Below are positions 8,919-46,404 of a stretch of 64,000 bases of DNA, one piece after another. The stretch covers positions 2,201 to 66,200 of the forward strand of contig CASTST010000002.1 in the NCBI GenBank assembly GCA_949451655.1, written 5' to 3'. Each line of letters starts with the position of its first letter. The first letter of the stretch is position 1. Source of the stretch: an uncultured Eubacteriales bacterium (GTDB lineage Bacteria > Bacillota > Clostridia > Oscillospirales > CAG-272). The notes beneath the pieces are model-generated. The model saw only the letters and a list, made by a program, of their open reading frames with translations. It was not told the origin of the DNA and ran no database searches. The position numbers and the translations under genes were made by a program.

Positions 8919-8954
8919 CAGGGTGTCCGTTTGTCCCCCAGAATATTTAGAAGT

Positions 8955-10980: not shown

Positions 10981-10981
10981 A

Positions 10982-16744: not shown

Positions 16745-16746
16745 TT

Positions 16747-17473
16747 GATTGACATAAACCCATGCAAAGGTGTTAAAACTCCAAAAGTATTACCGCCATC
16801 CATTAAAGTCTACACAGATACACATCAGCACCAGATAGAAAAAGCTGCGCTTGAGCACGAAAATGTAAATGCACTTATGGTGTTGATAGATTTGTATACC
16901 GGTTTAAGAATTGGGGAATTGTGCGGCTTAAAGTGGAGCGATTTTGGAAGGGATAAAGAATATTTTGATATTCACCGCATTATCGAACGGCTGAAAATTC
17001 AATGGGCTGAAAACCGCAGCGATTATCAAAGGATTTCTCTTATCAGTGCCCAACCGAACAGCAGCACTGCATTATATATTGGCACACCGAAGACCGAGCA
17101 GGGGAAGCGTAGAATATATACTTCCAGCCAAGCCGTTTTGGGATTTGAAAGGATAGAATCCTATCAAAAGAATAATGAAACTTATCGGGAAAATGGTTTT
17201 GTTTTTCTGCAAAGAAACGGGAATCCATATGAACCCAAGGCGTACAATGACCTGTATCGAGATGTTTTAAAATGCGCTGATGTTGACTACCGAAACTTTC
17301 ACACGCTGCGGCATACGTTCGCCACACGTGCATATGAGTTGGCATTCGACATTCCTACTTTATCAGAAATACTGGGGCATGCGCAAAAATCCACTACGGA
17401 AAACATGTACGGACATTCACTGGACGACACCAAAAAGAAAGCTATGACAAAGTTCAACAGAGGATTTTTATAA
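16747..17473 (+). pseudogene. 5'-truncated tyrosine recombinase (phage-integrase family) fragment
   Basis: Readable only from ..IDINPCKGVKTPK (end of the core-binding domain) through the catalytic domain (LYTGLRIGELCGLKWSDF, HTLRHTFATRAYE, LGHAQKSTTENMYGH). No N-terminal domain, and no plausible start or RBS. Upstream sequence is the antisense of the RHS 5' end. Confidence 0.75.
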
Positions 17474-21959: not shown

Positions 21960-22102
21960 GGCGGCATACTGTGGGCGGAAAATGATTCTTCACTGGGTAT
22001 TGTTCCCCTGTTCAGGAAAAAAATCCATTGAAGAGGTGGATTTTTTATGCTATACTGAAATATGTAAAAATTTGATTGGTACGGACGGGAGCTACATATC
22101 AT

Positions 22103-23194
22103 ATGATAAGAAACACACTGCCGCAGACAAAACTGACATTATCCGATTTCCATTATGATCTGCCGCCGGAGCGGATTGCCCAGACACCCATAACCCCCCG
22201 GGACGCCTCCCGACTGCTTGTAATGAACCGGGAAACGGGAGAACTGGAACATCGGATTTTCCGGGATATTTTAGAATATATCCGCCCAGAGGATGTGCTG
22301 GTTCTCAATGATACCAAAGTCATTCCTGCAAGAATCGTAGGGCGGCGCGCATATAAGGCCGTGGGAGACAGTGTGGAAAAATCGACCAGCACCGCGCCGG
22401 TGGAACTGCTGCTTCTGAAGCAAACGGAAAAGGATGTATGGCAGGCGCTTGCGGGTCCGGGCAAACGGGCACGGATCGGAGATATTCTGGAATTCGGGGA
22501 CGGGATCTTACAAGCACATGTGGAAGATATTGTGGAGGGGGGGCAACGGATTGTACGCCTTACCTGTGATACAGCCACTATATATGAAGCGCTGCACCAG
22601 ATCGGATCCATGCCCCTTCCTCCGTATATAACGGAAAAGCTTGCAGATCCGGACCGGTATCAGACTGTATATTCCAATATAGAAGGATCAGCTGCGGCGC
22701 CGACTGCGGGACTGCATTTTACAAAGGAACTGCTGGAGCAGGTACGCGGGAAGGGAACTGCCATCGCACCTGTATTGCTTCATGTGGGGCTGGGTACATT
22801 TCGCCCTGTAAAAGAGGAGCATATTGCAGATCATGCGATGCACGCAGAATATATCTCCATATCAAAGGAAAGCGCCGATCTGATCAATGAACGCCGGGCC
22901 GCGGGCGGGAGAGTAATCGCTGTGGGAACAACCTCCTGCCGCACGCTGGAAAGTGTGGCGGACGAAAACGGTATTTTGCAGCCGTATTCGGGAGAAACAG
23001 GCATTTACATATATCCAGGATACCGGTTCAAAATTGTAGACGGACTCATTACAAACTTTCATTTGCCGGAAAGCACGCTGCTGATGCTGGTATCTGCTTT
23101 TGCCGGGCGGGAGAAGGTTTTGGAGGCATATCATACTGCTGTGGAAAAGCAGTATCGGTTTTTCAGTTTTGGAGATGCAATGCTCGTGGTGTGA
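22103..23194 (+). CDS. queA: S-adenosylmethionine:tRNA ribosyltransferase-isomerase
   Basis: LSDFHYDLPPERIAQTP N-terminus, PLPPYI, AAPTAGLHFT and VGTTSCRTLES motifs typical of QueA. The ORF track starts at 22076; ATG 22103 is preferred. Confidence 0.9.
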   Translation: MIRNTLPQTKLTLSDFHYDLPPERIAQTPITPRDASRLLVMNRETGELEHRIFRDILEYIRPEDVLVLNDTKVIPARIVGRRAYKAVGDSVEKSTSTAPVELLLLKQTEKDVWQALAGPGKRARIGDILEFGDGILQAHVEDIVEGGQRIVRLTCDTATIYEALHQIGSMPLPPYITEKLADPDRYQTVYSNIEGSAAAPTAGLHFTKELLEQVRGKGTAIAPVLLHVGLGTFRPVKEEHIADHAMHAEYISISKESADLINERRAAGGRVIAVGTTSCRTLESVADENGILQPYSGETGIYIYPGYRFKIVDGLITNFHLPESTLLMLVSAFAGREKVLEAYHTAVEKQYRFFSFGDAMLVV

Positions 23195-23350: not shown

Positions 23351-23469
23351 GGCGGGAAAAAGGTGAATATATATTCGTGATTCTTGAATTTATATTCAAC
23401 CAGCGTAGTTGATGGCCGAGCATTCATGTATCGAAATTATCGGCTTTTTGAACTCAATTATGTCTCTAA

Positions 23470-23509
23470 TGTAGTAAAAAAGAAGAGGAGGCAGCATTTT
23501 GCTGCCTCC
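23470..23509 (-). terminator. Intrinsic terminator of the serine recombinase gene
   Basis: Hairpin GGAGGCAGC-ATTTT-GCTGCCTCC (23487-23509). On the minus strand it is followed by CTTCTTTTTT. Confidence 0.75.
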
Positions 23510-23526
23510 TTTGCACTCTATGTATA

Positions 23527-25170
23527 TTATCGTTTAAACTGATGAGGAGTACCATTCTCCTGTTCTGTACGAAACGCAATTGCTTTAATCTCCCCACCCT
23601 CGACATATATCGCTTTGATCACGTCTTGAAAGAAGTGCTTCAAGTCATAGAATGGAATGTTTTTCACACAGTTTGAAAAATCAATATCGGAGAGGTGGTA
23701 TAAGTTACGCTGGATGTAAAAGTCATAGCACGTTTTCAAATAGTCCACCTGTGGAACAGATTGCGTACTGATGCTATTTTCCAGCTGTTGTAGTTCCGCA
23801 GATAGTTTCTTTACCGCTTCTTTAAGATGATCCATTCGATCATCTGCTTTGTCAGAATTATTTGCTTCAAGGGATTCCATACGTTCTAACTCCCGTTCTT
23901 TCATCTGTATCTCAAATTTCAGTTTCCGCTGCTTATCCTGAACATCCCCATTTGAAGAACCACTTCCAAACAATGAACGTTTGATTTCTTCAGCATTAGC
24001 AAGCGCTTCAATTTCATCAAAATCCTTACCTCGAAGTAGCATCCTTTTTAACGCCAAAGGAGAAGTGGAGGGGGAAATCTGCCCACATGCCCTTAGCAGA
24101 TTGAGAAGATAGTTCATGATAAAACTGCCGACTTCTTTATCTGTAAAGTTGCTTTTCGGACAGTGGGGACACCAATAGGTAGCTGGTGATGAAAACTTGC
24201 GAGCATTTTCTTTTTCCCACGAGAGTGGAATCTGATGTGTAGTACAGGTCAATAATTCTGCAAAAAGCGGCTTTCGCACATGATAGACCGAATTTTTCCT
24301 GTCAGTATATCTCTGCTGACATCGCTCAAAGAGTTCGCTGGAGATAATAGCCGGATGATCGTTTTCCACAAGAACCAAATCCTTCTCGTCATTTATCACT
24401 CGTTCCTTTTTCGAGGTATAGCTGCGATAATTGTATCGAAGCGCACCGGTATAGGAAATGTTCGTCAGCATCCGCTCAATGGCGGGCACTAGCCATTTCT
24501 TTTTGATTCGTTCTGCTAATGGAAGACTGTTGAGATGTTTGGCTATTGCATATACCGTGATTCCCTGGTCAAACATATTGAAAATAGTGCGGATAATGTT
24601 GGCCTCTGGTTCTTCAACAGAATATTCCTTTGTTTTTGGATCCCGCCGATATCCGAAAGGGATACGGAAGCCGGTATACTCTCCAGCCTCTGCCTTTGAA
24701 AGCAGAACAGCTTTTGACCTTTCGGCGGCATTGTGTCTTTCCAGCTCTGCAAAAATCAAAATTATCTTCAATAAAGCCTGCCCTACGATACTTGAAGTAT
24801 CAAATTGCTCTGCCAGACTAATAAAAGTAACGTCTAACCTATGCAATTCTTCAAACATCTCAGTGAAATCGATGATATTTCGGCTGATACGGTCAATTTT
24901 CCAGACAATCAGATGTGAAAATTCGCCCGTACGCAGCTTTTGCATCATTTTTTGATAATCCGGGCGATCGGTGTTCTTGGCTGAGTACCCTGCGTCCCGA
25001 AAAATCTCGTATTCATTCATGTTCAATACCAACTTCGTATAGTTGATCAGCTCCCGTTCTTGTACTTTTAGGCTGTCCTTGTCAATTTGATATACGGTCG
25101 AAACGCGGATGTACAATGCGGCTTTATCTTTTGCTGCAGGGGGGATGTTGTTTTTCTTCTTCCGTGCCAT
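23527..25170 (-). CDS. Large serine recombinase
   Basis: 547 aa. Resolvase-type N-terminus with catalytic Ser context (AALYIRVSTVYQ..DSLKVQ). Recombinase domain, Cys-rich zinc-ribbon region (CTTHQ..CPHCPKS) and a C-terminal coiled coil (KLKFEIQMKERELERMESL). Confidence 0.9.
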   Translation of the reverse strand: MARKKKNNIPPAAKDKAALYIRVSTVYQIDKDSLKVQERELINYTKLVLNMNEYEIFRDAGYSAKNTDRPDYQKMMQKLRTGEFSHLIVWKIDRISRNIIDFTEMFEELHRLDVTFISLAEQFDTSSIVGQALLKIILIFAELERHNAAERSKAVLLSKAEAGEYTGFRIPFGYRRDPKTKEYSVEEPEANIIRTIFNMFDQGITVYAIAKHLNSLPLAERIKKKWLVPAIERMLTNISYTGALRYNYRSYTSKKERVINDEKDLVLVENDHPAIISSELFERCQQRYTDRKNSVYHVRKPLFAELLTCTTHQIPLSWEKENARKFSSPATYWCPHCPKSNFTDKEVGSFIMNYLLNLLRACGQISPSTSPLALKRMLLRGKDFDEIEALANAEEIKRSLFGSGSSNGDVQDKQRKLKFEIQMKERELERMESLEANNSDKADDRMDHLKEAVKKLSAELQQLENSISTQSVPQVDYLKTCYDFYIQRNLYHLSDIDFSNCVKNIPFYDLKHFFQDVIKAIYVEGGEIKAIAFRTEQENGTPHQFKR

Positions 25171-25226
25171 TTTTGCACTCCTTTCATCTTCAATGGGTTC
25201 AATCTGAAGATGAAAGGAGATTGACA

Positions 25227-25877
25227 GTGAAAAATTTTATAACGGCACGGTATATTGGCTATGTGGTTGGGAATGTGAAGTCCATGGAAGGAGGATATGG
25301 CTTTAGAATTAAGCTAATCTATAAAGATGGAGAAACACTGGTTGAAGAAAGCGCTGGATACAAATCAGAGAAAGAAGCAAAGTGGGAGAGAGAAGTGTCT
25401 ATGAAACTCTTGAAAAAACATCAATATGTTATTCAACCAGATACAATAGCAGAAGATTACTTTAATGCCTGGTTGGATTTTGTTTCTCCAAAGCTTTCAA
25501 AAGCAATGCGTCAGGAGTATCAGGATGCAGTCCTTTATATTAATCAGAAATATGGAAAAGTGAAGATCCGTTTTTGGGATGCGGAACATGTCGTTTCAGT
25601 TTACAAAAGCGTATGGAAAGATTCTAAAACGGATCATACAATAATACGCAATGTTCTGAAAAAAGCCTTAAAGTTCGCCAAAACAGTGGGATACTTAAGT
25701 TATGACTTAGAAAAAGACGACTTGATTTTTGAAGAGTGGTTTATTTCAAATGACATGCTCAGCGGCTCAGGGGAAATAACGATGACCGAGGATGGTCAGC
25801 CGGTTTATAATTTATCTGCTATAAGCAAATATATTGAGGAGTTAGGAATTGATGGCCTGCATGGGAAGAATAAATAG
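25227..25877 (+). CDS. Protein resembling only the N-terminal (arm-binding + SAM-like core-binding) part of a tyrosine integrase
   Basis: GTG start 6 nt after AAAGGAGA. GYGFRIKLIYKDGETLVEESAGYKSEKEAKWE fits the AP2-like arm domain. YFNAWLDFVSPKLSKAMRQEYQDAVLYINQKYGKVKIRFWDAEHV..ALKFAKTVGYL fits the SAM-like domain. No catalytic domain follows. Confidence 0.55.
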   Translation: MKNFITARYIGYVVGNVKSMEGGYGFRIKLIYKDGETLVEESAGYKSEKEAKWEREVSMKLLKKHQYVIQPDTIAEDYFNAWLDFVSPKLSKAMRQEYQDAVLYINQKYGKVKIRFWDAEHVVSVYKSVWKDSKTDHTIIRNVLKKALKFAKTVGYLSYDLEKDDLIFEEWFISNDMLSGSGEITMTEDGQPVYNLSAISKYIEELGIDGLHGKNK

Positions 25878-25967
25878 CGCAGATATAATTTTTATATCTG
25901 AAACTTAAATAGAGAGGAGAAGTATGAAAAACATAGAATTGAAAAATGCAGAAAGGAGGGGTAAATT

Positions 25968-26159
25968 TTGAGTGAGGTCAGTTGTATGGTATATACGGCA
26001 GACGAAGTTCAAGAGATGCTACATATAGGAAGAAACAGCATCTACGATTATTTGGGTGAAGTGTACCGAGAGCAATATCCATTCCGAGTAATCAAGATTG
26101 GAAAGCAATACCGTATTCCTAAGGCATCCTTTGATAAATGGATTCAATCAGATATTTGA
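25968..26159 (+). CDS. Excisionase-family helix-turn-helix DNA-binding protein
   Basis: 63 aa. YTADEVQEMLHIGRNSIYDYL..RVIKIGKQYRIPKASFDKWI matches the HTH_17/Xis-like pattern. RBS AAGGAGG. Followed by hairpin AGGGCTTAA..TTAAGCCCT plus Ts. Confidence 0.65.
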   Translation: MSEVSCMVYTADEVQEMLHIGRNSIYDYLGEVYREQYPFRVIKIGKQYRIPKASFDKWIQSDI

Positions 26160-26365
26160 ACCAAAGTGAAAAAATTCAAAGGGCTTAACATCAAATTTAA
26201 GCCCTCTGAGTTTTTATCTGAAGCCGTCTTATGTTTCGAATTCTGCTTTCCGGACATGTACGAGATTTGTTTAACGATCTCCTTCGATATGACATTTTTA
26301 TATTTTTGCATGAGACACAGAGTTAGCTGAGTGATATCATTTCACAGAGAATGAAATAGAAGGGA

Positions 26366-26539
26366 TTAATACGGTTTTGTATTATTATGTCGTTTTTTGC
26401 TTCTGGGTCGCTTTGCTGCCCAAGGGCAAATGAATATGCTAATCTCCAATTTGCTGCGATATTCCGATAGTAACTTATCAACAGAAATTCTTGAGTTCTT
26501 CTCCGCCAAAAAACGTTCAAGTTCAGTTTTGTTTATCAT
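26366..26539 (-). CDS. Hypothetical small protein
   Basis: GGAGGGA RBS 7 nt before the ATG (MINKTELERFLAEK...). 57 aa. No recognisable family. AT-rich region, so it may be a remnant. Confidence 0.25.
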   Translation of the reverse strand: MINKTELERFLAEKNSRISVDKLLSEYRSKLEISIFICPWAAKRPRSKKRHNNTKPY

Positions 26540-26998
26540 TATATTTCCCTCCATAAATTTATGATGCTTTCAATGAAGCTCATTTAAAATATGGAAGAAG
26601 TTGATGTGTCTAAATATTTAGAATGAACACGTCCGCTAAAAAGCCTTGCAGTGTAACAGCGCATTCGATTGAGAGAAGGATGTCGGCATTTTTAACAAGA
26701 ATGGTGAAATGTGCAATACACTGTATTTCCGAATAGCAAATAGAGGGAGCAAGAAAAGGGACCCTTTTATCAATAAATTGACTGTGTTCTCCAAGGAAAT
26801 CATTCCCACAGTAAAAAGGTATACCCTCTCGGGCATGATACCAGTCTTTCATGATACGGGCGAATATTGCGTTGTCATTGTTGAGCCAAACAAAAGAGAT
26901 ATAAAAGTATAGCAACAACAAGCTCAAATCATAAATGGGTAGGATAACGCACAAAAGAACAAAACCAGACATTATGCTTAATTTTGTTCCGAACATTG

Positions 26999-27027
26999 TT
27001 GATTTTATTCTGCCACAGTGGTATACT
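26999..27027 (+). promoter_or_regulatory. Sigma-70-type promoter with extended -10 upstream of the three-gene cassette
   Basis: TTGATT (26999-27004), 17 nt, TGgTATACT (-10 at 27022-27027). 28 nt upstream of the GGAGG-preceded ATG at 27055. Confidence 0.6.
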
Positions 27028-27054
27028 ATATCTGAAAAGCTTGGAGGTGCTAAC

Positions 27055-28923
27055 ATGAGTGATGCCATAACTGTAAAGGAAGCGGCAAAGCTTTGGGGAA
27101 TCACGGAGCGCCGAGTAACCGTCCTTTGCAAAGAAGGTCGGATAGAAGGGGCATATAAAAATAACCGCAGTTGGGTGATTCCTATGGATGCCGAGAAACC
27201 TGCGGACAGCCGGATTAAAACCGGTGCATATAGAAAAACCAAAACATTGTCTGGTCTACCGCTGCCGGTTGGAATTTCAGATTATCGTCTGGCCTCGACC
27301 GAGTACTACTATGTCGATAAGACCATGATGATTAAGGATTTTCTGGACGAGAGACCGATGGTGTCTCTGTTTACCCGTCCGCGCCGTTTTGGCAAAACCT
27401 TGAATATGGATATGATCCGCACCTTCTTTGAAAAGACGGACGAAGACACCTCTATTTATTTCAGAGATAAAAAAATTTGGGCTTGTGGTAAAAAATATCG
27501 AGATTATCAAGGAAAATACCCGGTGATTTTCATCACTTTTAAGGATGTGAAACGGGACTCCTGGGAGGAAACCTATGATCAGATTTCCAAGATTCTGACA
27601 CAGGAGTTCGAACGCCACAGCGAGCTCTTGGAAAGCGAGCAGTGCAGCAAATATGAGAAATCGTACTTTAAGAATGTTCTGGAAGGGAAAGCGGACAGCA
27701 CAGATATGATGATGTCCCTGCAAAGGCTCTCTCAAATGCTGGACGAGCATTATGGTATCCCACCGATTATTATCATCGATGAGTATGACACGCCGATTCA
27801 GCAGGGGCATATGAGGGGGTTTTATGATAAAGTGATTCTCTTCATGCGCAACCTCTTTTCAGGCGGCCTGAAGGATAACCGGCACCTTTCTTATGGCTTT
27901 TTAACGGGCATTCTTCGTGTGGCCAAAGAGAGCATTTTCAGCGGCCTAAACAATTTAAAAGTGAATTCCATATTGGACAACCAGTATAGTGAATATTTTG
28001 GTTTTACGCCGGAAGAGGTAAAAGCGATTGCCCTCTATTACCATGCGGGGGAGAAGTACGCGGAAATCTGTACTTGGTACGACGGGTATCGGTTCGGGGA
28101 GACGGAAATATTTAACCCATGGTCTGTCATCAACTATTTTAGCAATGGCTGTCAGCCCAAGACATTTTGGCAGTCAACCGGCAGCAATGAGATCATTGGC
28201 GAAATTTTGGCGCATGCAGGAGAAGAAATCTATGAACGACTTAATGCTTTATTGCAGGGGAAATCTTTCCTGACGTATATCGACACCGGAGTTATTTATC
28301 CACAGATTCGAAATAATCCTTCCTCCGTATACAGCTTTCTTCTGGTTGCAGGCTATCTGAAAGTCGTAAGGGGAGATCCTGCTTTCAGCGGCGATTATAT
28401 GTGCGAGGTGGCGCTGCCCAACCGGGAGATTGCGTTTGTGTATAACAAAGAGATTCTACAAAAATTGTCCGATATCATTCCACAGGCTACAGCAATCTCC
28501 ATTCAAGAAGCCTTGTATTCTAATGATGCTCAAAGGCTGCAAAAGGAGATGCATAAGCTTCTTCTCCAATCGGCAAGCTGCTACGATACTGTCGGAGAAA
28601 ACTTTTATCATGGTTTTGTTCTGGGGCTTTGCGCCATGATGGATAACCGCTACTATATCAGCTCGAATGGGGAATCCGGAGAGGGCCGATATGATATCCA
28701 ATTATTGCCTAAGTCAGAGAATATGCCAGGTATTCTGATTGAACTGAAGGCTGCCAGAAATTTCTCCGAAGACAAACTAAAGCGGCTCTCAGAGACGGCT
28801 TTGGCACAAATTCAGGATCGCAAATACGATACCGATATGATCTCAAAAGGCGTTAAAACGGTCTTCAAGTATGGCGTAGCTTTCAGCGGGAAACAGGTGG
28901 AGATTGCGGCAGCTTCCCAATGA
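27055..28923 (+). CDS. HTH + AAA-ATPase-like (PF09820-type) + PD-(D/E)XK (PDDEXK_9-type) protein
   Basis: Start ATG 27055 (GGAGG, 7-nt spacer). N-terminal HTH ITVKEAAKLWGITERRVTVLCKEGRI. Then LPVGISDYRLASTEYYYVDKTMMIKDFL..FTRPRRFGKTLNMDM, typical of the predicted AAA-ATPase family. C-terminal GESGEGRYDIQLLP..GILIELKA nuclease-fold motif. Confidence 0.85.
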   Translation: MSDAITVKEAAKLWGITERRVTVLCKEGRIEGAYKNNRSWVIPMDAEKPADSRIKTGAYRKTKTLSGLPLPVGISDYRLASTEYYYVDKTMMIKDFLDERPMVSLFTRPRRFGKTLNMDMIRTFFEKTDEDTSIYFRDKKIWACGKKYRDYQGKYPVIFITFKDVKRDSWEETYDQISKILTQEFERHSELLESEQCSKYEKSYFKNVLEGKADSTDMMMSLQRLSQMLDEHYGIPPIIIIDEYDTPIQQGHMRGFYDKVILFMRNLFSGGLKDNRHLSYGFLTGILRVAKESIFSGLNNLKVNSILDNQYSEYFGFTPEEVKAIALYYHAGEKYAEICTWYDGYRFGETEIFNPWSVINYFSNGCQPKTFWQSTGSNEIIGEILAHAGEEIYERLNALLQGKSFLTYIDTGVIYPQIRNNPSSVYSFLLVAGYLKVVRGDPAFSGDYMCEVALPNREIAFVYNKEILQKLSDIIPQATAISIQEALYSNDAQRLQKEMHKLLLQSASCYDTVGENFYHGFVLGLCAMMDNRYYISSNGESGEGRYDIQLLPKSENMPGILIELKAARNFSEDKLKRLSETALAQIQDRKYDTDMISKGVKTVFKYGVAFSGKQVEIAAASQ

Positions 28924-28965
28924 AGAAATAGAAGCAAGTACAGATATGTACAAAGTGCTTTTGAC

Positions 28966-31900
28966 ATGAACAAGCAACAGGGGATGATAGAAATGGATAA
29001 ACGGATTTTCGCTTCTATGATCGTGAAGCATTGGTATCTGCTGGAGTTTTTGGGGCAATCCGATTTTCCCGTACAAAGTCGGGACAGCCGCGAGCTTTGT
29101 TCAAAAGCGGCCAAAGGAGAAACGCGTACGAAACAGATCACGGTGTATCGTTTGCTATCCGATCAAGCGGACACACACGCTAAAAATCAAAGATCGGTCT
29201 TTATAGAGCCGTATACAGCACTGCAAAGCGATGCACATGTTTATACTTCATATGGTGTGCTATCGGATGAAATCCATATTTGTTTGGGGAAGATAGAACG
29301 CTACCTGTTTGCTGAGCGCTTACAGCAAACTTTTCATCAGGATTTGGAGTTGCCGGAGAAAAACGGCAAACCTGTATGCCTCATAGGCCTGAAGTGTGAT
29401 GAACAAGGGAAGTATATTCCAGGCAGCATTCAAGTGTCCCCGTTGGCTTGGGGGATCTATCAGCTTCTACATCACGCCGAACAATTGACAAAAGAGAATA
29501 TGGCGGACTTTTTATCCATGAATTCCTATGAGTCCGATATGCAATTTTTTGACAATCAAATGGTAGAAGTGACGGAGGAAAGGCGTGTTGGACAACTGCT
29601 CACATCGGATTTGCTGAATTCTATTAGGGATCAAGCAGAAAGAAAATATTTGGTGAATATTATCCAGCGGGAACAGGAAATAAATTGGGACGGTGTCATG
29701 ATTTATCGCCGGTATAGGACCGAAGAGAATAAGGCGCGGGATACAGACGTTTTTCACGATAGTGACTTGGCCAACAGCTTTTTTGCAGATGATCTGCACA
29801 TGGTGGAAACAGCGATTAGCGATAGAGAGTTCGGCAAAAATCCGTTGGAACAGGCGATATTGGATTACATAACTGGGGTATATGCGGAAGAAAACCCAGA
29901 GCTGCATTGGCTGGATTTTCAAAATCGTATCGATGTGCACAATGTTTGGAACAACGGAAAGGAAGAAAATCGCACCGACTTTTTCCACCGCCATTTGGAT
30001 ATTGCAAAAGCTCCTCTTGGCAAATGGCCGTCCAAATTTATGCCTTGCTTGATGCAGCAGTTGGCAGTCAATTTGAGCTGGCGTCCGTCGCCGGATAACC
30101 TGCCCATTTTTTCTGTGAACGGTCCTCCTGGTACAGGAAAGACTACTCTGCTGAAGGAAATCATAGCCGGCAATATCGTGGAGCGGGCAGATTTGCTTAC
30201 CCACTATCAAGACCCGGATGACGCCTTTATTCAACGTCGCTTTCAAGATGGAGATAAGATGCACAGGGGATATTCTCAATATTGCTGGGGATATTACGAC
30301 TTTGCCGATGAACAACTGAAAGACTACGGGATGCTGGTGGCCTCGTGCAATAACGCCGCTGTGGAGAATATCACGAAGGAGCTGCCGGATGGGATGGCCC
30401 TGTTGAAAGGGATAGAGCCTGGTAAGAAGGAAGATGAGGCCGTTCGTCAAGGCCTTTTGGAAATACAGAAATTGTTTGAAATAGATGAGGCGGACAAAGA
30501 AACCTATAGAGTATGGAATCAAGAAAGATATGAATCCAAAACCTATCCGGATATCTATTTTACAAAGTTAGCCAACGATTTGGCGAAAAGGAAAGAGGGG
30601 GAATGGGATCGTTGGGGATTGATTTCTGCGCCGTTCGGGAAGATGAGCAATCTGAAGGAATATATGTATGCTGTCTTAAAAACCTATATCGGAAGCTTTG
30701 GTTCCAATGACAGCATTCAGCAGCACAAAGAGGAGTATATAGGTGCTGCCCAGCGTTTCAAGAGACAGCATGAAAAAGTCAGACAAATGGAACAAGAGCT
30801 CCAACAGATCAGCGGTGCAAGGAAACGCTTTACAGAACAACAAGCGTCGCTGGACAATCAAGCCCAAAGGACAAGAGATCTTCAATCCCAACGAGAACGG
30901 GATGCGGAAGAGTTGCTGAAGAACTTGCAGGAGCTGGCGCAGCAGTCAAAACTGGCGGAACATACCTTGAACGATTATCAGGGAGAATTGGCCGATTTAC
31001 AGCATCGGAAATCCTTCCAGGACGAAAATCAAGTGAATGCGGAAAATCAAGTCCAGGAACTCCGCCAGCAAATTATAGAGCTGGAAAACAGTCGTCAGTT
31101 TCGAGACATTGTTCTTGAAATTTTCCGTCGGCCCACCATGTTGTCTCGTACCATCCAGGAGCAGTATCGAGCCTTGGCCACGGCGGAACAGCACCTTCAA
31201 GATGAGGCGGCGAAGACGGGACAGCTGCAGCAGGAATTGGAACGTCAAAACCGGAAATGTAATTTACAAAGCGATGTCATAAGCAGCCTTGAAAATCAGC
31301 AAAACCAACTTTCAGAAAAACGAAGAAACTGTCTTGAAGAGGTAACCCGGCTGCGCCTGCAAACGGAGGAATGCTTAAAGAAGATCACACAGGCCCGCAA
31401 GTCCTATATATCGCTTTTGAAGGAGGCTTCCGAGCAGCGCGGCGCTCAGGCGATGACGGTACTGGATGAAGCGTTCTTCCATCTGTATGATAGTGAAGAG
31501 GACAAAGAATCCACTGCGGCACAGGTGGCTAATCCCTGGCACACAGCGGCCTATAATCGGGAGAGGGAGAAGTTGTTCTATGAAGCGTTAAAGCTTCATA
31601 AGGCGTTCTTATTAGGATCGAAAGCTTGTTTATGGAATTTTAAGAATCTGTTATTGCTGTGGAAAGAACCGGGGGATGATGGTAAGACTCCTGCAGCATT
31701 TTCTCAGCGCGACCGGGAAGCAGCGTTCGGTTCTTTGCTGAACACGGTGTTTTTGCTGACCCCTGTGCTTTCCACTACGTTCGCATCCGCGGGGAATATG
31801 CTGTCATCCATTCGGCATCCAGGAGAAATCGGCTGCCTGATTATCGACGAGGCTGGACAAGCCGCGCCGCAGATGGCGTTGGGATCCCTTTTCCGCTGCC

Positions 31901-33417
31901 GCCGTGCGATCGTGGTTGGTGATCCCAAGCAGGTGGAACCAGTTGTGACGGATGAAATGGATTTGATCAAACAGGTGATCCAAAACGATTATACCAGCTA
32001 TTATCAATCCAAGATCCACTCGGTTCAAGGCTTTGCCGATCGGCTGAGCACCGTAGGGACAACCTATGCCGATGGCGAACAGAAAACTTGGGTAGGATGT
32101 CCATTGGTCGTACATCGGCGTTGTATCAGCCCTATGTTTGAATTGTCCAACGCACTGTCTTATAACCACATGATGAAACAGCAGACTGCTCTGCCGGGAT
32201 CTGAAAAAGAAGCCAGATTCTGTCAGAGAAGCTCCGGCTGGATCAATGTCAGCGGAAGCGAGAACAGCAGAGCGGGCAAGGATCATTTTGTGGAAGCGCA
32301 GGGAAGAAAAGCGTGGGAACTTATCCGAGAATCATTTCGGTTATCCGAAGAAATACCGAACCTTTTCGTCATTACCCCGTTTACTACTGTGCGGGACGGC
32401 ATGAAGAAGTTGATTCGATCTCAGCCGGAGTACCGGGAGGATGAACGATTTGCCGAGTGGGTTGAAAACAACATAGGAACCGTGCACACCTTCCAGGGCA
32501 AAGAAGCGGATCAGGTCATTTTTCTGCTTGGATGCGATAAGAATGCCTTGCCGGCTGTTCGTTGGGTAAACGCTAATATTGTCAATGTGGCAGCTACCAG
32601 GGCCAAGTACCGTTTGTATGTAATCGGTGATTATACTGTTTGGCAGCATTCCGTTCTATTCCAAAAGGTAAAGGGAATTCTGGACAGCTATGCTCTTCAC
32701 GCCCTGCAAAAAGCGGCGGACAATCCCGATGTGCCGCGAAATGAAAAACAGATAGAGCAGTTGTTGCAAGAAGTGCCTGGCGCTGACTCCTTGACAATAG
32801 ATGGGGAATTGGATGATTGCCTGGTAGCACCCCTTTTTCAAGAGTTGGACGGTTTGTGGAAAAATAGTTCACTCACACCGGCACAGTTGGCGGCGTTCGG
32901 CCTTTCTGCATCCGATATGAAAAGTTTACCGTCGAAAATTCAGCAAAGGCTTACCAGCAGTATACTGCTGCATGAGCTGTTTGCCACGATGAGAGAACGG
33001 TATAACCTGGAAGATATGGATGCATCCTGTGCAGGCATCTTGTTCTGCAAGACGATGGAATCTATGCTGAAAGAAATGCTCTTAGGGAAATTGAAAGCAC
33101 TGTTTCCGGACGAGAAGACAAGTAAGGGAAAACTTTGTGATATAAAGGATCATAAAGTAACAACCGGTACCTTTACAACTCTTCTAAATAAAGAAGAATT
33201 GCGCTCCCGGTTAGCTTCCCGCAGGGCTATCCTGTTTGAACAGGTTTGCGATGATCGGTGGTGGAAAGAATATGCCGAGGAATTAGAAAAATTTCGTTTG
33301 CTGCGCAACACCTGCTGTCATTCCGAACCGCTGAACTGGCAGCAGGAGAACGAACTGATACAGATCCTTTTTGCTAAACAGGAGTTTATCAAAACACGGG
33401 TTGGCGATGCCTTGTGA
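28966..33417 (+). CDS. 1483-aa Upf1/DNA2-like SF1B helicase with coiled-coil insertion and C-terminal HEPN-like domain
   Basis: Motif I NGPPGTGKTT (30121-30144). Ia MLVASCNNAAVENI. II LIIDEAGQA (31837-31863). III AIVVGDPKQVEPV. HRRC motif. V TVHTFQGKEADQVIF. VI NVAATRAKYRLYVIGD. Heptad/Q-E-R-rich segment at about aa 585-830. C-terminal LLRNTCCHSEP (Rx4H, 33304-33321). Start could also be 28984 or 28993. Confidence 0.9.
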   Translation: MNKQQGMIEMDKRIFASMIVKHWYLLEFLGQSDFPVQSRDSRELCSKAAKGETRTKQITVYRLLSDQADTHAKNQRSVFIEPYTALQSDAHVYTSYGVLSDEIHICLGKIERYLFAERLQQTFHQDLELPEKNGKPVCLIGLKCDEQGKYIPGSIQVSPLAWGIYQLLHHAEQLTKENMADFLSMNSYESDMQFFDNQMVEVTEERRVGQLLTSDLLNSIRDQAERKYLVNIIQREQEINWDGVMIYRRYRTEENKARDTDVFHDSDLANSFFADDLHMVETAISDREFGKNPLEQAILDYITGVYAEENPELHWLDFQNRIDVHNVWNNGKEENRTDFFHRHLDIAKAPLGKWPSKFMPCLMQQLAVNLSWRPSPDNLPIFSVNGPPGTGKTTLLKEIIAGNIVERADLLTHYQDPDDAFIQRRFQDGDKMHRGYSQYCWGYYDFADEQLKDYGMLVASCNNAAVENITKELPDGMALLKGIEPGKKEDEAVRQGLLEIQKLFEIDEADKETYRVWNQERYESKTYPDIYFTKLANDLAKRKEGEWDRWGLISAPFGKMSNLKEYMYAVLKTYIGSFGSNDSIQQHKEEYIGAAQRFKRQHEKVRQMEQELQQISGARKRFTEQQASLDNQAQRTRDLQSQRERDAEELLKNLQELAQQSKLAEHTLNDYQGELADLQHRKSFQDENQVNAENQVQELRQQIIELENSRQFRDIVLEIFRRPTMLSRTIQEQYRALATAEQHLQDEAAKTGQLQQELERQNRKCNLQSDVISSLENQQNQLSEKRRNCLEEVTRLRLQTEECLKKITQARKSYISLLKEASEQRGAQAMTVLDEAFFHLYDSEEDKESTAAQVANPWHTAAYNREREKLFYEALKLHKAFLLGSKACLWNFKNLLLLWKEPGDDGKTPAAFSQRDREAAFGSLLNTVFLLTPVLSTTFASAGNMLSSIRHPGEIGCLIIDEAGQAAPQMALGSLFRCRRAIVVGDPKQVEPVVTDEMDLIKQVIQNDYTSYYQSKIHSVQGFADRLSTVGTTYADGEQKTWVGCPLVVHRRCISPMFELSNALSYNHMMKQQTALPGSEKEARFCQRSSGWINVSGSENSRAGKDHFVEAQGRKAWELIRESFRLSEEIPNLFVITPFTTVRDGMKKLIRSQPEYREDERFAEWVENNIGTVHTFQGKEADQVIFLLGCDKNALPAVRWVNANIVNVAATRAKYRLYVIGDYTVWQHSVLFQKVKGILDSYALHALQKAADNPDVPRNEKQIEQLLQEVPGADSLTIDGELDDCLVAPLFQELDGLWKNSSLTPAQLAAFGLSASDMKSLPSKIQQRLTSSILLHELFATMRERYNLEDMDASCAGILFCKTMESMLKEMLLGKLKALFPDEKTSKGKLCDIKDHKVTTGTFTTLLNKEELRSRLASRRAILFEQVCDDRWWKEYAEELEKFRLLRNTCCHSEPLNWQQENELIQILFAKQEFIKTRVGDAL

Positions 33418-33468
33418 TGACGTTTGAAAATATCCAGAACCGATTTTGTGAAAACGGAGGGAAGACGA

Positions 33469-34197
33469 ATGCATGGAAAGCTTTATTTAGAAGTTCCTTA
33501 TGCAGAAAAGGAACTCGCAAAGAGCTTGGGTGCCCAGTGGGATCCTAAGCTGAAAAAGTGGTTTTATCAAGGGCCGGTAAGCGACTATGTGAAGTTTGCG
33601 CGCTGGATTGCAGGAAACCGGGAGCTGACCATTATCGCGCATGAGTATATCTATATCGTGGAAGGAACACAGACTTGCTTTCGCTGTGGAAAGCCCACAC
33701 ATGTAATCGGCCTGGGAATTGGAGAACACACAAGATTATACTGCAATGATGACGGCAGCTTTGAGAGTGAAACCATTGAAGATTTGGTGGGATATGAGCC
33801 GCTGTTTCTTTCGTGGGTAGACGATGAAAAGGATATACCGCCAGCCCTATTAAAGTACATAAAGCAAAAATATAATGTGCGCACCGGATTTTCCAAGACA
33901 GCAGGAGAGTGCTTTGCAAATCACTGCGATCACTGCGGAGTGATACAGGGAAATTGGTATTTGTTTGAGGAGGACAGCCCTCTTACTGCTTTTATCCCGG
34001 ACGGGCCAGAGTTAAGGGATAAGTTAAGCAAACTGAAGATCTACAGTATCGGGATTGATGAAAATTTAGTTTTGGATTGGAATTTTGGTATGGGAGATAA
34101 TGATGAGCTTTATTTCAAATATTGTCCCACCAAAGAGTTGATCTTGCCTCCTAGCGACGATGCATACATCACCTATGCTGATATGTATAAACCGTAA
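33469..34197 (+). CDS. DUF5710-like N-terminal domain protein with CxxC...CxxC module
   Basis: ATG 33469, 7 nt after GGAGGG. KLYLEVPYAEKELAKSLGAQWDPKLKKWFY matches the DUF5710 pattern. CFRCGK and CDHCG pairs lie about 85 aa apart. The ORF track's upstream TTG start at 33424 is less likely. Confidence 0.7.
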   Translation: MHGKLYLEVPYAEKELAKSLGAQWDPKLKKWFYQGPVSDYVKFARWIAGNRELTIIAHEYIYIVEGTQTCFRCGKPTHVIGLGIGEHTRLYCNDDGSFESETIEDLVGYEPLFLSWVDDEKDIPPALLKYIKQKYNVRTGFSKTAGECFANHCDHCGVIQGNWYLFEEDSPLTAFIPDGPELRDKLSKLKIYSIGIDENLVLDWNFGMGDNDELYFKYCPTKELILPPSDDAYITYADMYKP

Positions 34198-34298
34198 ATG
34201 GCTGTATTTTATGCTTCATCAAAGCTTAAGAACGCCAAATTTTTCGCCCTTCATATTGACTTTCCAGCTAAAACCTGCTATTATAAATATACAGAAAA

Positions 34299-34335
34299 GC
34301 GGTGCAGGGAAAGTGTCCCCGCACCGCTCTTTTTT
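34299..34335 (+). terminator. Intrinsic terminator closing the cassette
   Basis: GCGGTGCAGGG-AAAGTGT-CCCCGCACCGC followed by TCTTTTTT. A second hairpin GAAGCCCTCGGAA..TTCCGAGGGCTTC lies at about 34377-34427. Confidence 0.75.
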
Positions 34336-34592
34336 GGAGATGCAATGTATATTGGGTGAGTAATTTTATTCAAAAGAAGAAGCCCTCGGAAATGCGCACA
34401 CACCATGCACTTCCGAGGGCTTCTTTATTCCAGCTCAATACCCTATAGTACCAATCATTACTGTTTTATGTTGGTTGTTTCGCCTTCTGTTTTTCAGTAA
34501 ACTGTTTCCAGTAAAAAGTGAAACGATAGAGGAGAAAGCTTGACGATGATAGAAATGCTGAGATTGAAAACCTGCTGGGCAATGGCAATAAA

Positions 34593-35462
34593 ATGATGAA
34601 AGGGATTTTGCTTGCAGGCGGTAAGGCGACGCGGTTTCGACCAGCAACACAGGCAGTTTCCAAACAACTGCTATGCGTGTATGATAAACCGTTGATCTAT
34701 TACCCGCTAACGATGCTGATCGAAATGGGGATTCAGGAAATCGCCATCATTGCGGCAGGAGAAACAGTAGATGTCTATCGCAAGCTACTGGGAGATGGCA
34801 GCCGATTTGGAACAACTTTTACCTACTTGACACAGCCGGAACCGGGCGGAATCGCACAGGCATTTTTAATCGCACGCCATTTTATCGGAAAAGAAAAAGT
34901 TTGTCTGCTGCTTGGGGACAATATCTTTTTGAACGCACATCCCAATCGTATCGCCGCTATGGCTGCAAATACGGATAATGCGTATATATTAGCACTCCCG
35001 CATCGAAACCCGTCCCAATATGGTGTCGTTTCATGCAGCAGACGCGGGGAGGTCCTTTCTATAGAGGAAAAACCGCAAAAACCGCAATCTCATTTTATCG
35101 TGCCCGGCTTGTACTTTTATAACGCTTCTGTGGTACAAACAGCAGAAAATCTGCAGGTTTCCCCCCGAGGGGAATTGGAAATCACAGATATCAACAAATA
35201 CTACTGGAAAAAATCCACCTTAAAAGTTATTTATCCCAGCAAAAAAACGAAGTGGTTTGATGCCGGATGTCCCGAGGATCTATATCATGCAGTACGGGTG
35301 GTTCGTCAAAAGCAAAAACAAACGGGAAAACAAATCGGATGTCCCGAAGAGGCTGCCTTTCGACAAGGCTGGATCGGGCGGCGCGAATTGGAACAAAGCA
35401 TGAGACAAAATTGTCATTCAGCGTATGGACAATATTTAATGGAGCTGATGGAACATGCATAA
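34593..35462 (+). CDS. rfbA: Glucose-1-phosphate thymidylyltransferase
   Basis: MKGILLAGGKATRFRPATQAVSKQLLCVYDKPLIYYPL and LGDNIF motifs. Confidence 0.85.
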   Translation: MMKGILLAGGKATRFRPATQAVSKQLLCVYDKPLIYYPLTMLIEMGIQEIAIIAAGETVDVYRKLLGDGSRFGTTFTYLTQPEPGGIAQAFLIARHFIGKEKVCLLLGDNIFLNAHPNRIAAMAANTDNAYILALPHRNPSQYGVVSCSRRGEVLSIEEKPQKPQSHFIVPGLYFYNASVVQTAENLQVSPRGELEITDINKYYWKKSTLKVIYPSKKTKWFDAGCPEDLYHAVRVVRQKQKQTGKQIGCPEEAAFRQGWIGRRELEQSMRQNCHSAYGQYLMELMEHA

Positions 35463-35998
35463 ACGCATGATGATAACCGGTGCGGGCGGTATGGTCGGCA
35501 GACAGGCTGTACACTATTTTCGTGAAAGTTATGCAGTGACCGCGCTGACCAGAACCATAGTATCCATAGCAGACAAGGAATCTGTGAAGCAGGATTTCAA
35601 ATTGTAAAACCCGATAAGCCTTTACAGTCGGACAAAAGCTTGAAATTTTAGGAAATCAATATGGCAATCCAACCAGCGTGTCAGAGCTATTAAATATGAT
35701 TGCCTTGCTTTAACAAACAAAAGCATACGGTATTTATCATGCTGTATGTCTTGGAAGAACAAGCCGGTTGCACTTTGCCAGGCAAATCATCCTGGAAGCG
35801 GGATTGGATGTTCCCGCTCAGGAGATAAACAAAGATAGAGAACCCATATTGGACACATCCCTTTCAACAAAAAAACTACAGCAGATAATCCAATATACCC
35901 CTGTCCATTGGGATAAAGCACTCACAGACTATATAGACGAGGCAAAATATGAAAATTTTATCCAGTGTCCTGAACGGAGTTTTAAAAATCGGGGCTAA
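35455..35998 (+). pseudogene. rfbD: dTDP-4-dehydrorhamnose reductase remnant (internal deletion, stops and frameshifts)
   Basis: N-terminal piece MMITGAGGMVGRQ..VTALTR..ADKESVKQDF then a stop at 35605. Out-of-frame middle piece GNQYGNPTSVSELLNMIALL / YGIYHAV. C-terminal piece FARQIILEAGLDV..PVHWDKALTDYI (ORF 35768..35998). Far too short for an intact RfbD. Confidence 0.7.
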
Positions 35999-36497
35999 GC
36001 AACATAACGATTCGCGCGGCTGGTTTTGTGAGGGATACCGGCAGGACACCTTTCAACAGCTGCAGATACATAATGTTTTTGTGCAGGATAATTATTCGCA
36101 CACCATAAAAAGAGGAACGATCCGCGGATTGCATTATCAGAAGGAACCGTATGCGCAGACCAAGCTGTTCCGCTGCATCAGCGGCGCAGTATACGATGTG
36201 GTAGTAGATCTTCGACAGCACTCTGCAACGTATCTTCAATGGGCTGGATTTGTGTTAAGTGGAGACCGATTTGAATGGCTGCTCGTCCCCAAAGGGTTTG
36301 CACATGGATTTCAGGCACTTTGCGATCACTGTGACGTGCAATACAAGGTGGATGAAACCTATCATCCGGATGCGGAGCGGTGTATCTGCTGGAATGATCC
36401 GACACTGGGAATTACCTGGCCTGTCCCACAGGTAATTTTATCTGCAAAAGACCGGCAGGGTATGAGGATTGCCGAACTCGGGCATACAGGAGAATAG
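35949..36497 (+). CDS. rfbC: dTDP-4-dehydrorhamnose 3,5-epimerase
   Basis: DSRGWFCE, RGLHYQ, KLFRCISGAVYDVVVDLR and VPKGFAHGF motifs. Confidence 0.85.
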   Translation: MKILSSVLNGVLKIGAKQHNDSRGWFCEGYRQDTFQQLQIHNVFVQDNYSHTIKRGTIRGLHYQKEPYAQTKLFRCISGAVYDVVVDLRQHSATYLQWAGFVLSGDRFEWLLVPKGFAHGFQALCDHCDVQYKVDETYHPDAERCICWNDPTLGITWPVPQVILSAKDRQGMRIAELGHTGE

Positions 36498-36501
36498 AAT
36501 C

Positions 36502-37524
36502 ATGCTAACCAATCAATTTAATCCTCAGGATAAGTTGCTGCAATACATAGACAAAATCAATGCTTTTCTGTCTATTGGAAAAACCTTGGTGGTTGCAGAA
36601 CTGGATTTGACCAACCGCTGCAACAATCGCTGCCCTGCCTGTATTGGAAAAAACACAGTGAAAGACGAGCTGACGTGGAATGAAATCCAACGAATTGCAG
36701 ATGGTCTACAGGAGTTGGATTGCAAAGGAGTCATTTTAAGCGGAGGGGGAGAACCATTGCTCCATCCCCTGTTTATACAAACAATTGCACTTTTGCAGGA
36801 AAAAGGATTACAAATCGGCATCAACACAAATGGCCTGGCGCTGGATCAAGAGAAGGCGGAAGCGATTGTCAAATACTGCAAATACTGTCGAATTAGCCTA
36901 GATAGCGGGGATGCCGAATTTTATCGAAAAACGCACGGAATGGATGCACAAGCATTTGACAATGTTGTGAAAAATATCCGCCTTTTCGCTGCTGTCAAAA
37001 AGAGAGCAGGCGCGCTTTTAAGCCTTGGGACAGGCTTTTTAACGAGCAAGGAAACTGTCGGGCAAATGGAACGCTTTGTAAAATTGTCCCAAGAATGCGG
37101 CGTGGATTTTGCTCAATTCCGTCCGTTTCAGGAAGATACAACGGATATTTCGGCGGAATATGAGCGATTAAAAAAAATATATGATAAGGACGGATTTCGG
37201 GTAGTAGCATCACAGCAAAAATACAAAGCCTTCAAAGAAGGAAAAAAGAAACCATATAATCGCTGCCGCGGTATGTTTTTTTCCACTGTCATCACCGCAA
37301 ACGCCAGGGTTTATGCCTGCCTTCATCACCGGCAGGATCCCCGCTATCTGATTGGAGATATGCGGGCGGGAATTTCACTGGTTGACATTTGGAACTCCCA
37401 TCGGAAATGGCAGGTGTTTGAACAAATTGACGTGCAAGAATGTCCTGCTTTCTGCCGTAATGATGCAATCAACCGGACGTTGGATGGATTGAGTGAAAAG
37501 GTATTTCATCAGGAATTTTTATGA
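36502..37524 (+). CDS. Radical SAM protein
   Basis: CNNRCPAC (Cx3Cx2C) cluster motif in LDLTNRCNNRCPACIG, plus GGGEPLLHP. Start ATG 36502 with RBS AGGAGA. A terminator hairpin AATTCCCCGGC..GCCGGGGAAT follows. Confidence 0.75.
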   Translation: MLTNQFNPQDKLLQYIDKINAFLSIGKTLVVAELDLTNRCNNRCPACIGKNTVKDELTWNEIQRIADGLQELDCKGVILSGGGEPLLHPLFIQTIALLQEKGLQIGINTNGLALDQEKAEAIVKYCKYCRISLDSGDAEFYRKTHGMDAQAFDNVVKNIRLFAAVKKRAGALLSLGTGFLTSKETVGQMERFVKLSQECGVDFAQFRPFQEDTTDISAEYERLKKIYDKDGFRVVASQQKYKAFKEGKKKPYNRCRGMFFSTVITANARVYACLHHRQDPRYLIGDMRAGISLVDIWNSHRKWQVFEQIDVQECPAFCRNDAINRTLDGLSEKVFHQEFL

Positions 37525-45819: not shown

Positions 45820-46275
45820 TAAAGGCTCCCCTAGCAAAGGGAACGCTAAACTTAATCAAGCCCCCTTGTGCAAAGGGGGGTGGCTCGCTGTAAGCGAGTC
45901 GGGGGGATTGTAAAGCTGTCGATTTATAGATAATCTAAAATGACAATAGGGACAATCCCTCACCCGCTAACGCGGGAGCTCCCTTTGCACAAGGGAGCCT
46001 TTTAAGTAGGGTGCTACGCGGAGCCAGCACAAGAGGGGTGTCACAGCTTTGCTGTGACGGGGGGATTGTACGCATAGGCTGGTGATTTATAGATCCTGCA
46101 AAATGATAGATAACAATCCCTCAGTCATGCCTACGGCATGACAGCTCCCTTTGCACAAGGGAGCCTTTTAAGTATGCTGCGCTCCGCGGGATGCCCCAGG
46201 GATTCGAAACCGAATCCCCACACAAGGGAGCCTTTTAAGCTTGATTTCGCTACAGTCTCCGGCGGAGCCTTTTTG
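45820..46275. repeat. Mosaic palindromic intergenic repeat cluster F (two cores)
   Basis: TIR cores 45902..45961 and 46060..46122, both orientation R. Flanking hairpins GCTCGCTGTAAGCGAG, GTCACAGCTTTGCTGTGAC and GTCATGCCTACGGCATGAC. GGGATTCGAAACCGAATCCCC submodule. Confidence 0.9.
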
Positions 46276-46404
46276 GTTCCTACAAACTTATACACGCAAG
46301 CGTTCGCCGGGAAGCGAACGCTTGTTTGTTACTGCTATTGTACAGAATATAATATGACAACAGTGTGTCATATTATGACGAATTTTATACCTTTTTGTCC
46401 GGTA

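Follow-up and report, generated by a model that had tools for sequence, protein, structure and literature searches.

Mokosh defence systems combine a COG1112 RNA helicase with a PLD nuclease, and in type II both are carried by one protein, in which the helicase lies N-terminally and the PLD C-terminally, according to the passages on Mokosh in the preprint of Millman et al. (2022; 10.1101/2022.05.11.491447). The CnuH helicases of CoCoNuT systems, as the sections on these proteins in Bell et al. (2024; PMC11090510) describe them, carry a coiled coil inserted after Walker A and are associated with HEPN, PLD or Vsr effectors. Under the Swt1-like HEPN domains, the corresponding section of Anantharaman et al. 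(2013; PMC3710099) lists 'STAND-ATPase, TPR, S1' and SF-I helicase fusions. Here we analyze g2, a large helicase gene comparable to these, which lies between two further genes, g1 and g3, in a 64,000-nt stretch of DNA (hereafter the window; contig CASTST010000002.1 of assembly GCA_949451655.1) from an uncultured Eubacteriales bacterium. The initial annotation, made from the sequence alone, had taken the three genes for a self-contained cassette encoding a candidate undescribed defence-type system. The explanation that we favor, with somewhat better than even confidence, is that the locus is a mosaic assembled at a queA hotspot rather than one system, and that g2, which encodes a single-polypeptide relative of MkoC with a HEPN-like tail, is its core. 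The mosaic would comprise four independently assorting modules: (i) a serine recombinase with orf253, (ii) g1, (iii) g2 and (iv) g3.

The g2 helicase compared with Mokosh and CoCoNuT

The g2 gene (28966–33417, + strand; 1483 aa) encodes a Upf1/MkoC-like helicase of superfamily 1B (SF1B) and is the sole gene conserved across its family, which has more than 2800 matches, found in Clostridia and Bacilli, and comes in a long form (~1470–1570 aa) and a short form (~1220 aa). The protein matches AAA_11 and AAA_12 in Pfam, and its closest solved relatives, judged from profile matches to the PDB, are Upf1, Sen1, IGHMBP2 and DNA2. Among the PADLOC models it matches MkoC best (E = 5e-64), with aa 380–1260 aligned to profile positions 267–980 of 1136, and also MkoA (E = 2e-23); the MkoC score amounts to ~215 bits over only ~63% of the model. 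These matches overturn the initial view that the gene 2 product is unlike Mokosh, from which it departs only in lacking the PLD nuclease. The same view had set it apart from Nhi, Hachiman, Gabija and Hna, and this was borne out by the PADLOC scan, in which none of the g1, g2 and g3 products matched a Nhi, Ham, Gaj or Hna model at E ≤ 0.1. NCBIfam gave only motif-level matches (IGHMBP2, PLuB, Hhe, ProA), far under the cut-offs, and the g2 matches in PHROGs were likewise at motif level only.

All Upf1/DNA2-like SF1B motifs previously read in gene 2 are present and are invariant in 22 g2 homologues. They include Walker A (GPPGTGKT, aa 386–393 with K392; 30121–30144, +) and motif II (DEAGQ, aa 961; 31846–31860, +), and the numbering given for K392 and for R1447 and H1452 in the C-terminal motif is correct. 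A coiled-coil insertion (aa ~585–830; 30718–31455, +) lies between these two motifs, and the matches of g2 to SMC, JetC, tropomyosin and myosin are restricted to it. The N-terminal alpha/beta domain (aa 1–380; 28966–30105, +) has conserved residues that include W23, E27, Q31, G108, Y150, W162 and D276, and in short-form homologues a portion of this region is matched by the N-terminal part of the MkoC profile. A structure model of the 380 residues reached a pLDDT (predicted local distance difference test) of 86.7; Foldseek searches of the PDB with it returned noise only (E ≥ 0.5, TM-score ≤ 0.25), in an output that resembled global alignments and was treated as uninformative. As to the translation start of g2, the ATG at 28966 has no Shine-Dalgarno sequence, and M10 (28993) has AGGGG 8 nt upstream and is kept in at least 90% of homologues; the true start may therefore be M10, at 28993.

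The match to MkoC does not extend to the nuclease. No PLD was detected in g2, either as a Pfam match at E < 0.1 or as an HxKx4D motif. Five other helicases tested (four of the g2 family and the DUF2726 helicase of locus L086, described below) scored 165–238 bits against MkoC, and in each the match ended by profile position ~960, before the PLD-bearing C-terminal end; profile positions ~980–1136 are unmatched in g2 and in all five. Since the match stops before the PLD end in all of these proteins, g2 shares the helicase chassis of MkoC but not its effector.

The resemblance to Mokosh type II is thus that of one large protein with a Upf1-like (COG1112) SF1 helicase, which gives the best PADLOC match, a C-terminal effector, a partly alignable N-terminal region in the short-form relatives and a location in variable islands. 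The differences are that g2 has no PLD/HKD nuclease but a HEPN-like RNxxxH domain in that position, and that its coiled-coil insertion is much longer. Mokosh type II works as a single gene, and it would be consistent with such a mode of action that g2 is the only conserved gene among 79 loci of its family; these 79 are the best among 506 loci confirmed in a family profile scan of one genome per species, and all co-occurrence counts below refer to them. The likeness to CoCoNuT CnuH-CnuE is one of architecture only: a Upf1-like SF1 helicase with a helical or coiled-coil insertion that follows Walker A, coupled to a nuclease effector that, in the sections of Bell et al. on these proteins, is most often HEPN and sometimes fused to the helicase, with RNA as the predicted target. 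Unlike the arrangement given there, the effector of g2 is fused rather than a separate wHTH-HEPN protein; in addition, no McrB/McrC (CnuB/CnuC) or TerY-P genes were seen near g2 in Pfam scans of the flanks, and the protein showed no N-terminal domain resembling SmpB or RelE. The best reading of g2 is that of a previously unnamed effector-swap variant of Mokosh type II, or of a CnuH-CnuE-like helicase, with a fused HEPN-like domain. No description of a Mokosh-HEPN variant was found in those portions of the literature on HEPN domains, Mokosh and Upf1-like helicases that were covered.

The C-terminal domain of g2

The effector-type, HEPN-like domain occupies aa 1225–1483 (32638–33414, +) and contains the motif RNTCCH (RNxxxH, i.e. 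Rx4H) at aa 1447–1452 (33304–33321, +). In 62 sequences with identities down to 25%, the invariant residues of the domain are D1352, K1362, E1365, W1432, R1447, N1448 and H1452. The domain (~260 aa) was found in 50 of the 79 loci, always fused to the helicase, and no separate gene for it was found in these loci beside the short-form helicases. Its AlphaFold2 model (pLDDT 93.3) is mostly helical, with additional N-terminal helices and small hairpins.

Profile searches point weakly to HEPN. When 18 diverse members were scanned permissively against Pfam, HEPN_Swt1 was matched by 3, below threshold and at best with E = 0.021, and was the only family matched by more than one of them; Abi_2 and DUF4145, both of the HEPN clan, were each matched by a single member, also below threshold. 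Sequence-profile searches of the PDB gave spurious matches only, the best being an engineered protein (E = 1.5e-4, aa 8–71), and hhalign detected no relation between the domain profile and one Pfam-annotated HEPN_Cthe2314 protein, from locus L164. Foldseek comparison of the model with PDB and BFVD recovered neither a HEPN nor another fold (best E 1.1 and 0.9, respectively), but the output resembled global alignments (E ≥ 0.5, TM-score ≤ 0.25) and was treated as uninformative rather than negative. Because no HEPN fold was recovered in this way, the HEPN call rests on the motif, the weak profile matches and analogies of architecture. Of the initial proposal of a C-terminal HEPN-like Rx4H motif in gene 2, the motif has stood, being invariant across the family; Foldseek did not recover a HEPN fold.

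The assemblage closest to this domain comprises the Swt1-like and Abi2 HEPN families as set out in the relevant section of Anantharaman et al. (2013), with which it shares an Rx4H motif having N after R, the sub-threshold matches to HEPN_Swt1 and Abi_2, and the same fusion partners, namely STAND ATPases with S1 and SF-I helicases; it differs in having no significant profile or fold match and in its extra N-terminal helices and small hairpins. An HMMER scan of 1.84 billion representatives detected the domain in only 255 clusters, mostly g2-type helicases. A second group consists of STAND-type NTPases of 600–775 aa (ATPase_2, AAA_16, nSTAND1, NB-ARC) that end in this domain, some of which carry S1 or OST-HTH/LOTUS RNA-binding domains. 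These NTPases (P0213, P0223, P0226, P0230, P0233, P0248, P0254 and P0274) would be an unnamed STAND-effector family. Some representatives of 100–250 aa match the C-terminal domain alone and are maybe remnants, like a g2 deletion product described below. The domain is most likely a mobile effector-type module and a divergent HEPN RNase, as judged from its sequence and its partners.

HEPN domains are typically RNases, and their active sites are normally composite. In g2, a conserved N-terminal alpha/beta domain would precede a Upf1-like SF1B motor interrupted by the coiled-coil insertion, with the HEPN-like domain placed where MkoC has its PLD. The ATP-driven helicase might engage phage-derived RNA or RNA/DNA intermediates, and this engagement would license the C-terminal HEPN-type RNase. 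The RNase would probably act as a dimer, in view of such composite active sites, and the coiled coil could mediate pairing. Cleavage of RNA would then block phage growth or abort infection. That this helicase clade may act on RNA is suggested by the exchange of PLD for a HEPN-type domain together with the presence of the same module on STAND NTPases with S1 or LOTUS domains. The setting of g2 is of defence type because of the queA hotspot, the recombinases, the pseudogenised copies and neighbours that match mad3, GajB and WYL models. The initial suggestion of an antiphage helicase-effector protein is supported as a plausible one for g2. A more far-reaching proposal, which we consider rather unlikely, is that g2 stands for an unnamed Mokosh-like branch of immunity in which one protein would combine a Upf1-type RNA helicase, bearing an N-terminal sensor of unmatched fold, with a new HEPN-family RNase under its direct control, shared with STAND NTPases that have S1 or LOTUS domains, and in which the rare g3 protein might be a recurrent, optional tuner of several lineages of Upf1-like helicase-nucleases. 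As a single gene from gut Clostridia, g2 offers a simple test case.

Assortment of g1, g2 and g3 and alternative explanations

The genes g1 (27055–28923, +; 622 aa), g2 and g3 (33469–34197, +; 242 aa, DUF5710 with a Zn-ribbon-type core) are co-directional, as initially annotated, with gaps that measure 42 nt (g1 to g2) and 51 nt (g2 to g3) instead of 43 and 52 bp. The ATG of g1 is preceded by GGAGG; the start of the mechanically defined open reading frame (ORF) is 26935. In the window the three genes are probably co-transcribed, from a promoter-like site at 26999–27027 (+; TTGATT-17-TATACT with TGn) to an intrinsic terminator at 34299–34335 (+). The site had been described as a near-consensus promoter; it exists, and the ~110-nt segment holding it (26928–27046) is kept 5' of g1 or g2 in loci L008, L014 and L160–L163, but it has only 9 of 12 consensus matches in addition to TGn, and sites of such quality are common in the region (29 found vs 16.5 expected). 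The terminator was confirmed as a bidirectional hairpin followed by TCTTTTTT, with a T-run on the + strand, a folding free energy of -25.6 kcal/mol and a z-score of -4.5. Directly before this hairpin, within 34256–34425, there is a promoter-like site with 10 of 12 matches (TTGACT-17-TATTAT with TG), and a second hairpin (34383–34425) lies 3' of it.

This tight spacing, shared promoter and terminator did not make the trio a system, which may serve as a caution. A g1 homologue adjoins the g2 homologue in 3 of the 79 loci (intact in L008, decayed in L012 and L016) and a g3 relative in 4 (L001, L013, L027 and, weakly, L037). Clustering of all neighbours revealed no conserved partner gene of the g2 homologues in these loci, the helicase being the only constant gene, and no downstream partner class was shared at the level of Pfam: the 53 co-directional genes directly downstream carry 91 Pfam families, with DUF5710 in 3 of the 53. 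DNA comparison placed sharp module edges at 27045, ~28940 and 33427. Similarity to most g2 relatives stops at 33425–33428, just past the g2 stop codon and before g3, and the block of similarity to L008 is exactly 27045–33428. In L014, g1 is missing and the conserved promoter segment borders directly on the leader of g2, the junction lying between short, similar sequences; in L016 the g1 fragment is 93% identical and g2 only 72%. In L001 and L013 the g2 and g3 segments form a single uninterrupted block. The loci L160–L163, in which the trio is ancestral, have g1 intact, g2 internally deleted and g3 decayed. The deletion there (~7250–7620 in L161) joins g2 codon 1 to codon 1364, leaving an ORF of 116–121 aa that consists of Met and aa 1364–1483 and retains only the RNxxxH part of the C-terminal domain. 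The exact trio recurs, followed by tgt and yajC, in the gut-metagenome contigs L172–L177, all from one shallow clade of gut Clostridia with ~91–95% identity.

The g1 product was described initially as combining a helix-turn-helix (HTH), an AAA-ATPase-like domain and a PD-(D/E)XK fold, and Pfam bears out all three: HTH_17 (aa 5–45; 27067–27189, +) at E = 9e-6 but sub-threshold, AAA-ATPase_like (PF09820; 27265–27939, +) at E = 2e-39 (135.7 bits, gathering score 26.1), and PDDEXK_9 (PF08011; 28594–28905, +) at E = 9e-18 (64.6 bits, gathering score 25.5). It has both domains and the ~620-aa layout of the Pfam AAA-ATPase_like + PDDEXK_9 proteins, and nothing distinctive was found in it; this architecture with an N-terminal HTH_17 is common to thousands of clusters of its family. 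The homologue clusters exceed 8000, mostly found elsewhere than beside g2. No PADLOC model matched g1, whose family is absent from PADLOC, and PHROGs yielded nothing useful, only excisionase-type HTH matches. In other genomes g1 stands next to queA alone or with Gabija-like genes: a 94%-identical copy follows queA in L160–L163, an 88% copy lies 3' of queA and 5' of either a HEPN_Cthe2314 gene with a GajA/GajB-like pair or an integrative and conjugative element, and another 88% copy is located after addAB. Judged by its sequence relatives, g1 represents an independent, very abundant gene family that is often found alone beside queA, rather than a partner dedicated to g2.

For g3, the DUF5710-like head and two CxxC pairs read initially are both present: DUF5710 (PF18974; 33478–33609, +) was matched at E = 5e-14 with 52.3 bits against a cut-off of 26.5, and the pairs C70/C73 (33676–33687, +) and C153/C156 (33925–33936, +) are invariant. 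No PADLOC model matched g3, and PHROGs returned nothing useful. Beyond its presence in Rep_3 plasmid initiators, no function of DUF5710 is described in the literature searched. The family is rare, with 32 clusters in a word-indexed search. Homologues at 83%, 72% and 68% identity stand alone, beside queA or in a metabolic neighbourhood; g3 occurs without g2 in L080–L085, in L178–L181 and in ~10 metagenome loci, and among 70 metagenome loci with g3 relatives the only helicase neighbours are in a window-like contig and in one locus with a different SF1 helicase.

The helicase gene g2 is inherited as a stand-alone gene. The self-contained three-gene cassette of the initial annotation is contradicted by the low counts beside g2, the unrelated downstream genes, the occurrence of g1 and g3 without g2 and the sharp module boundaries. 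Co-conservation of the three genes across divergent genomes was not found either in the forward counts (3 and 4 of 79) or in reverse look-ups, which show separation. By the refuting conditions set in the initial annotation, the 'novel three-gene system' is refuted, because a match to a named system exists and because the genes do not co-occur.

Several observations weigh against the mosaic with g2 as its core that we favor. The ~215 bits to MkoC may mean only a shared helicase clade, there are short-form g2 relatives without any effector domain, every HEPN profile match of the C-terminal domain is below threshold, and Foldseek recovered no fold for it. The defence-model matches among the neighbours were counted without a baseline. 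The trio is intact in many contigs of its one shallow clade, and g3-like genes recur beside distant helicases in L027, L037 and L086, so some cooperation with g3 is possible. Finally, 542 Klebsiella plasmids encode a 1113-aa relative in the midst of tra genes, which leaves room for a non-defence role of the g2 family.

The cooperation with g3 could take the form of a two-gene subtype, in which g3 is a facultative accessory (a regulator, adaptor or trigger-binding subunit) of Upf1-like helicase-nucleases and works with g2, g1 being a bystander. We regard this, the main rival explanation, as rather unlikely, although g3-like genes are found by three lineages of Upf1-like helicases: as one block with g2 in the window, L001 and L013; directly 3' of distant g2-family helicases in L027 (38% and 34% identity, short form) and weakly in L037; and, as a 60%-identical homologue, directly 5' of an SF1-DUF2726 helicase in L086 and L087. 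Because the g3 family is rare, such repeated adjacency to one helicase class looks unlikely to arise by chance. However, 75 of the 79 g2 homologues have no g3, most of the informative g3 loci have no helicase at all, similarity to most g2 relatives ends at 33427, before g3, and g3 homologues occur in ordinary metabolic neighbourhoods. We consider g3 a separable module and no more than a facultative accessory of Upf1-like helicases. The helicase of L086/L087 (8001–11568) is a different SF1 protein of 914 aa whose C-terminal domain, DUF2726, is nuclease-like; serine recombinases and a ParB_N gene are nearby.

Less probable still is that g2 has no immune role and that its helicase works for a mobile element or in RNA/DNA metabolism, for instance in the establishment of plasmids or integrative and conjugative elements, in replication or in RNA quality control. 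The Klebsiella relative among tra genes speaks for it, as do the 587 of 736 matching plasmid records predicted to be conjugative, the serine recombinases within 10 kb in 8 of the 79 loci and the closeness of g2 to Upf1, Sen1, IGHMBP2 and DNA2. Yet the model that the family matches best is that of a validated defence helicase, the distribution is patchy with copies often pseudogenised and neighbourhoods highly variable, a nuclease-type motif domain shared with STAND NTPases is fused to the helicase, and conjugative plasmids themselves often carry defence genes. The Klebsiella representative analyzed (L089, K. pneumoniae plasmid NZ_OY899160.1, 67943–71284) is a short-form helicase of 1113 aa with neither the C-terminal domain nor a PLD, and scores 238 bits against MkoC.

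An obligate three-component defence system, with g1 as ATPase/nuclease sensor, g2 as helicase-HEPN effector and g3 as Zn-ribbon adaptor, would account for the co-directional genes with gaps of 42 and 51 nt, their one conserved promoter and one terminator, the identical trio of L172–L177 and the ancestral trio of L160–L163, but it is very improbable given that all trio cases belong to one shallow lineage (~91–95% identity), that beyond it 3 of 79 loci have g1 adjoining g2, decayed in two, and 4 have g3 there, that g1 and g2 of L016 differ in identity (93% vs 72%), that the same promoter drives g2 without g1 in L014, that g1 has more than 8000 homologue clusters, mostly elsewhere, and is intact where g2 and g3 are decayed (L160–L163), and that PADLOC has no match for g1 or g3.

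The queA hotspot and the rest of the window

The interval between queA and tgt is a variable recombination hotspot in which unrelated cargo genes are stacked, in keeping with the initial view of the locus as accessory and variable. Its anchor, the conserved queA (22076–23194, +), lies within 7.6 kb upstream of a g2 homologue in 10 of the 79 loci, distant ones included, and stands beside g1 or g3 homologues in L080–L085 and L160–L167. In the window the stack runs in the order recombinase with orf253, g1, g2, g3. An AT-richer accessory segment with a large serine recombinase was confirmed, the GC fraction falling to 0.37–0.46 over ~23–38 kb, and, as had been claimed, no phage structural, relaxase or type IV secretion Pfam domain was found in the 20 flanking ORFs scanned. 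The flanks comprise queA, the serine recombinase, rfb-like genes and miaA.

The recombinase (23527–25170, -) is part of a separable insertion (23425–26923), and orf253 (25116–25877, +) has no Pfam domain and only a weak PHROG 'integrase' match. L012 and L160–L163 lack this module, which lies between queA and the promoter of g1, and L014 has orf253 and the intergenic DNA without the recombinase. The possibility that the cassette is a single mobile element carried by the serine recombinase was considered and rejected, since g1 and g2 are found without the module, and the module without them.

When 120 neighbour proteins were scanned with PADLOC, some matched defence models (mad3, GajB and WYL models nearby), a weak form of context. 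In L164 and L166 (~8–14 kb), which belong to another lineage, queA and g1 are followed by a HATPase_c_4/HTH_24 gene, a HEPN_Cthe2314 protein and a Gabija-like pair of an OLD-family ATPase and a UvrD helicase; this gene content supports the view of the site as a defence hotspot.

Relative to L012, the closest genome (flanks 86–91% identical), the window is inverted over 9019–33427. The inversion breakpoints lie at ~9018/17306 and at 33427, the latter ~10 nt past the g2 stop codon, and in L012 the counterpart of window positions 3574–9018, in inverted orientation, directly adjoins the 3' end of g2. A second accessory island (9143–17473; GC fraction 0.39–0.47) contains a 1919-aa Rhs protein (10982–16744, -) with 16 RHS repeats and DUF6531, an Rhs fragment (9143–10231, -) and a tyrosine integrase (16406–17473, +). 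The stretch between g3 and miaA includes a low-GC block (34593–37524), probably additional cargo of accessory type, with genes for an rfbA-like nucleotidyltransferase, a dTDP-4-dehydrorhamnose epimerase and a radical SAM/SPASM protein. An 892-aa ORF at 46138–48816 (+), with no Pfam match, is overlapped by a 794-aa ORF on the opposite strand.

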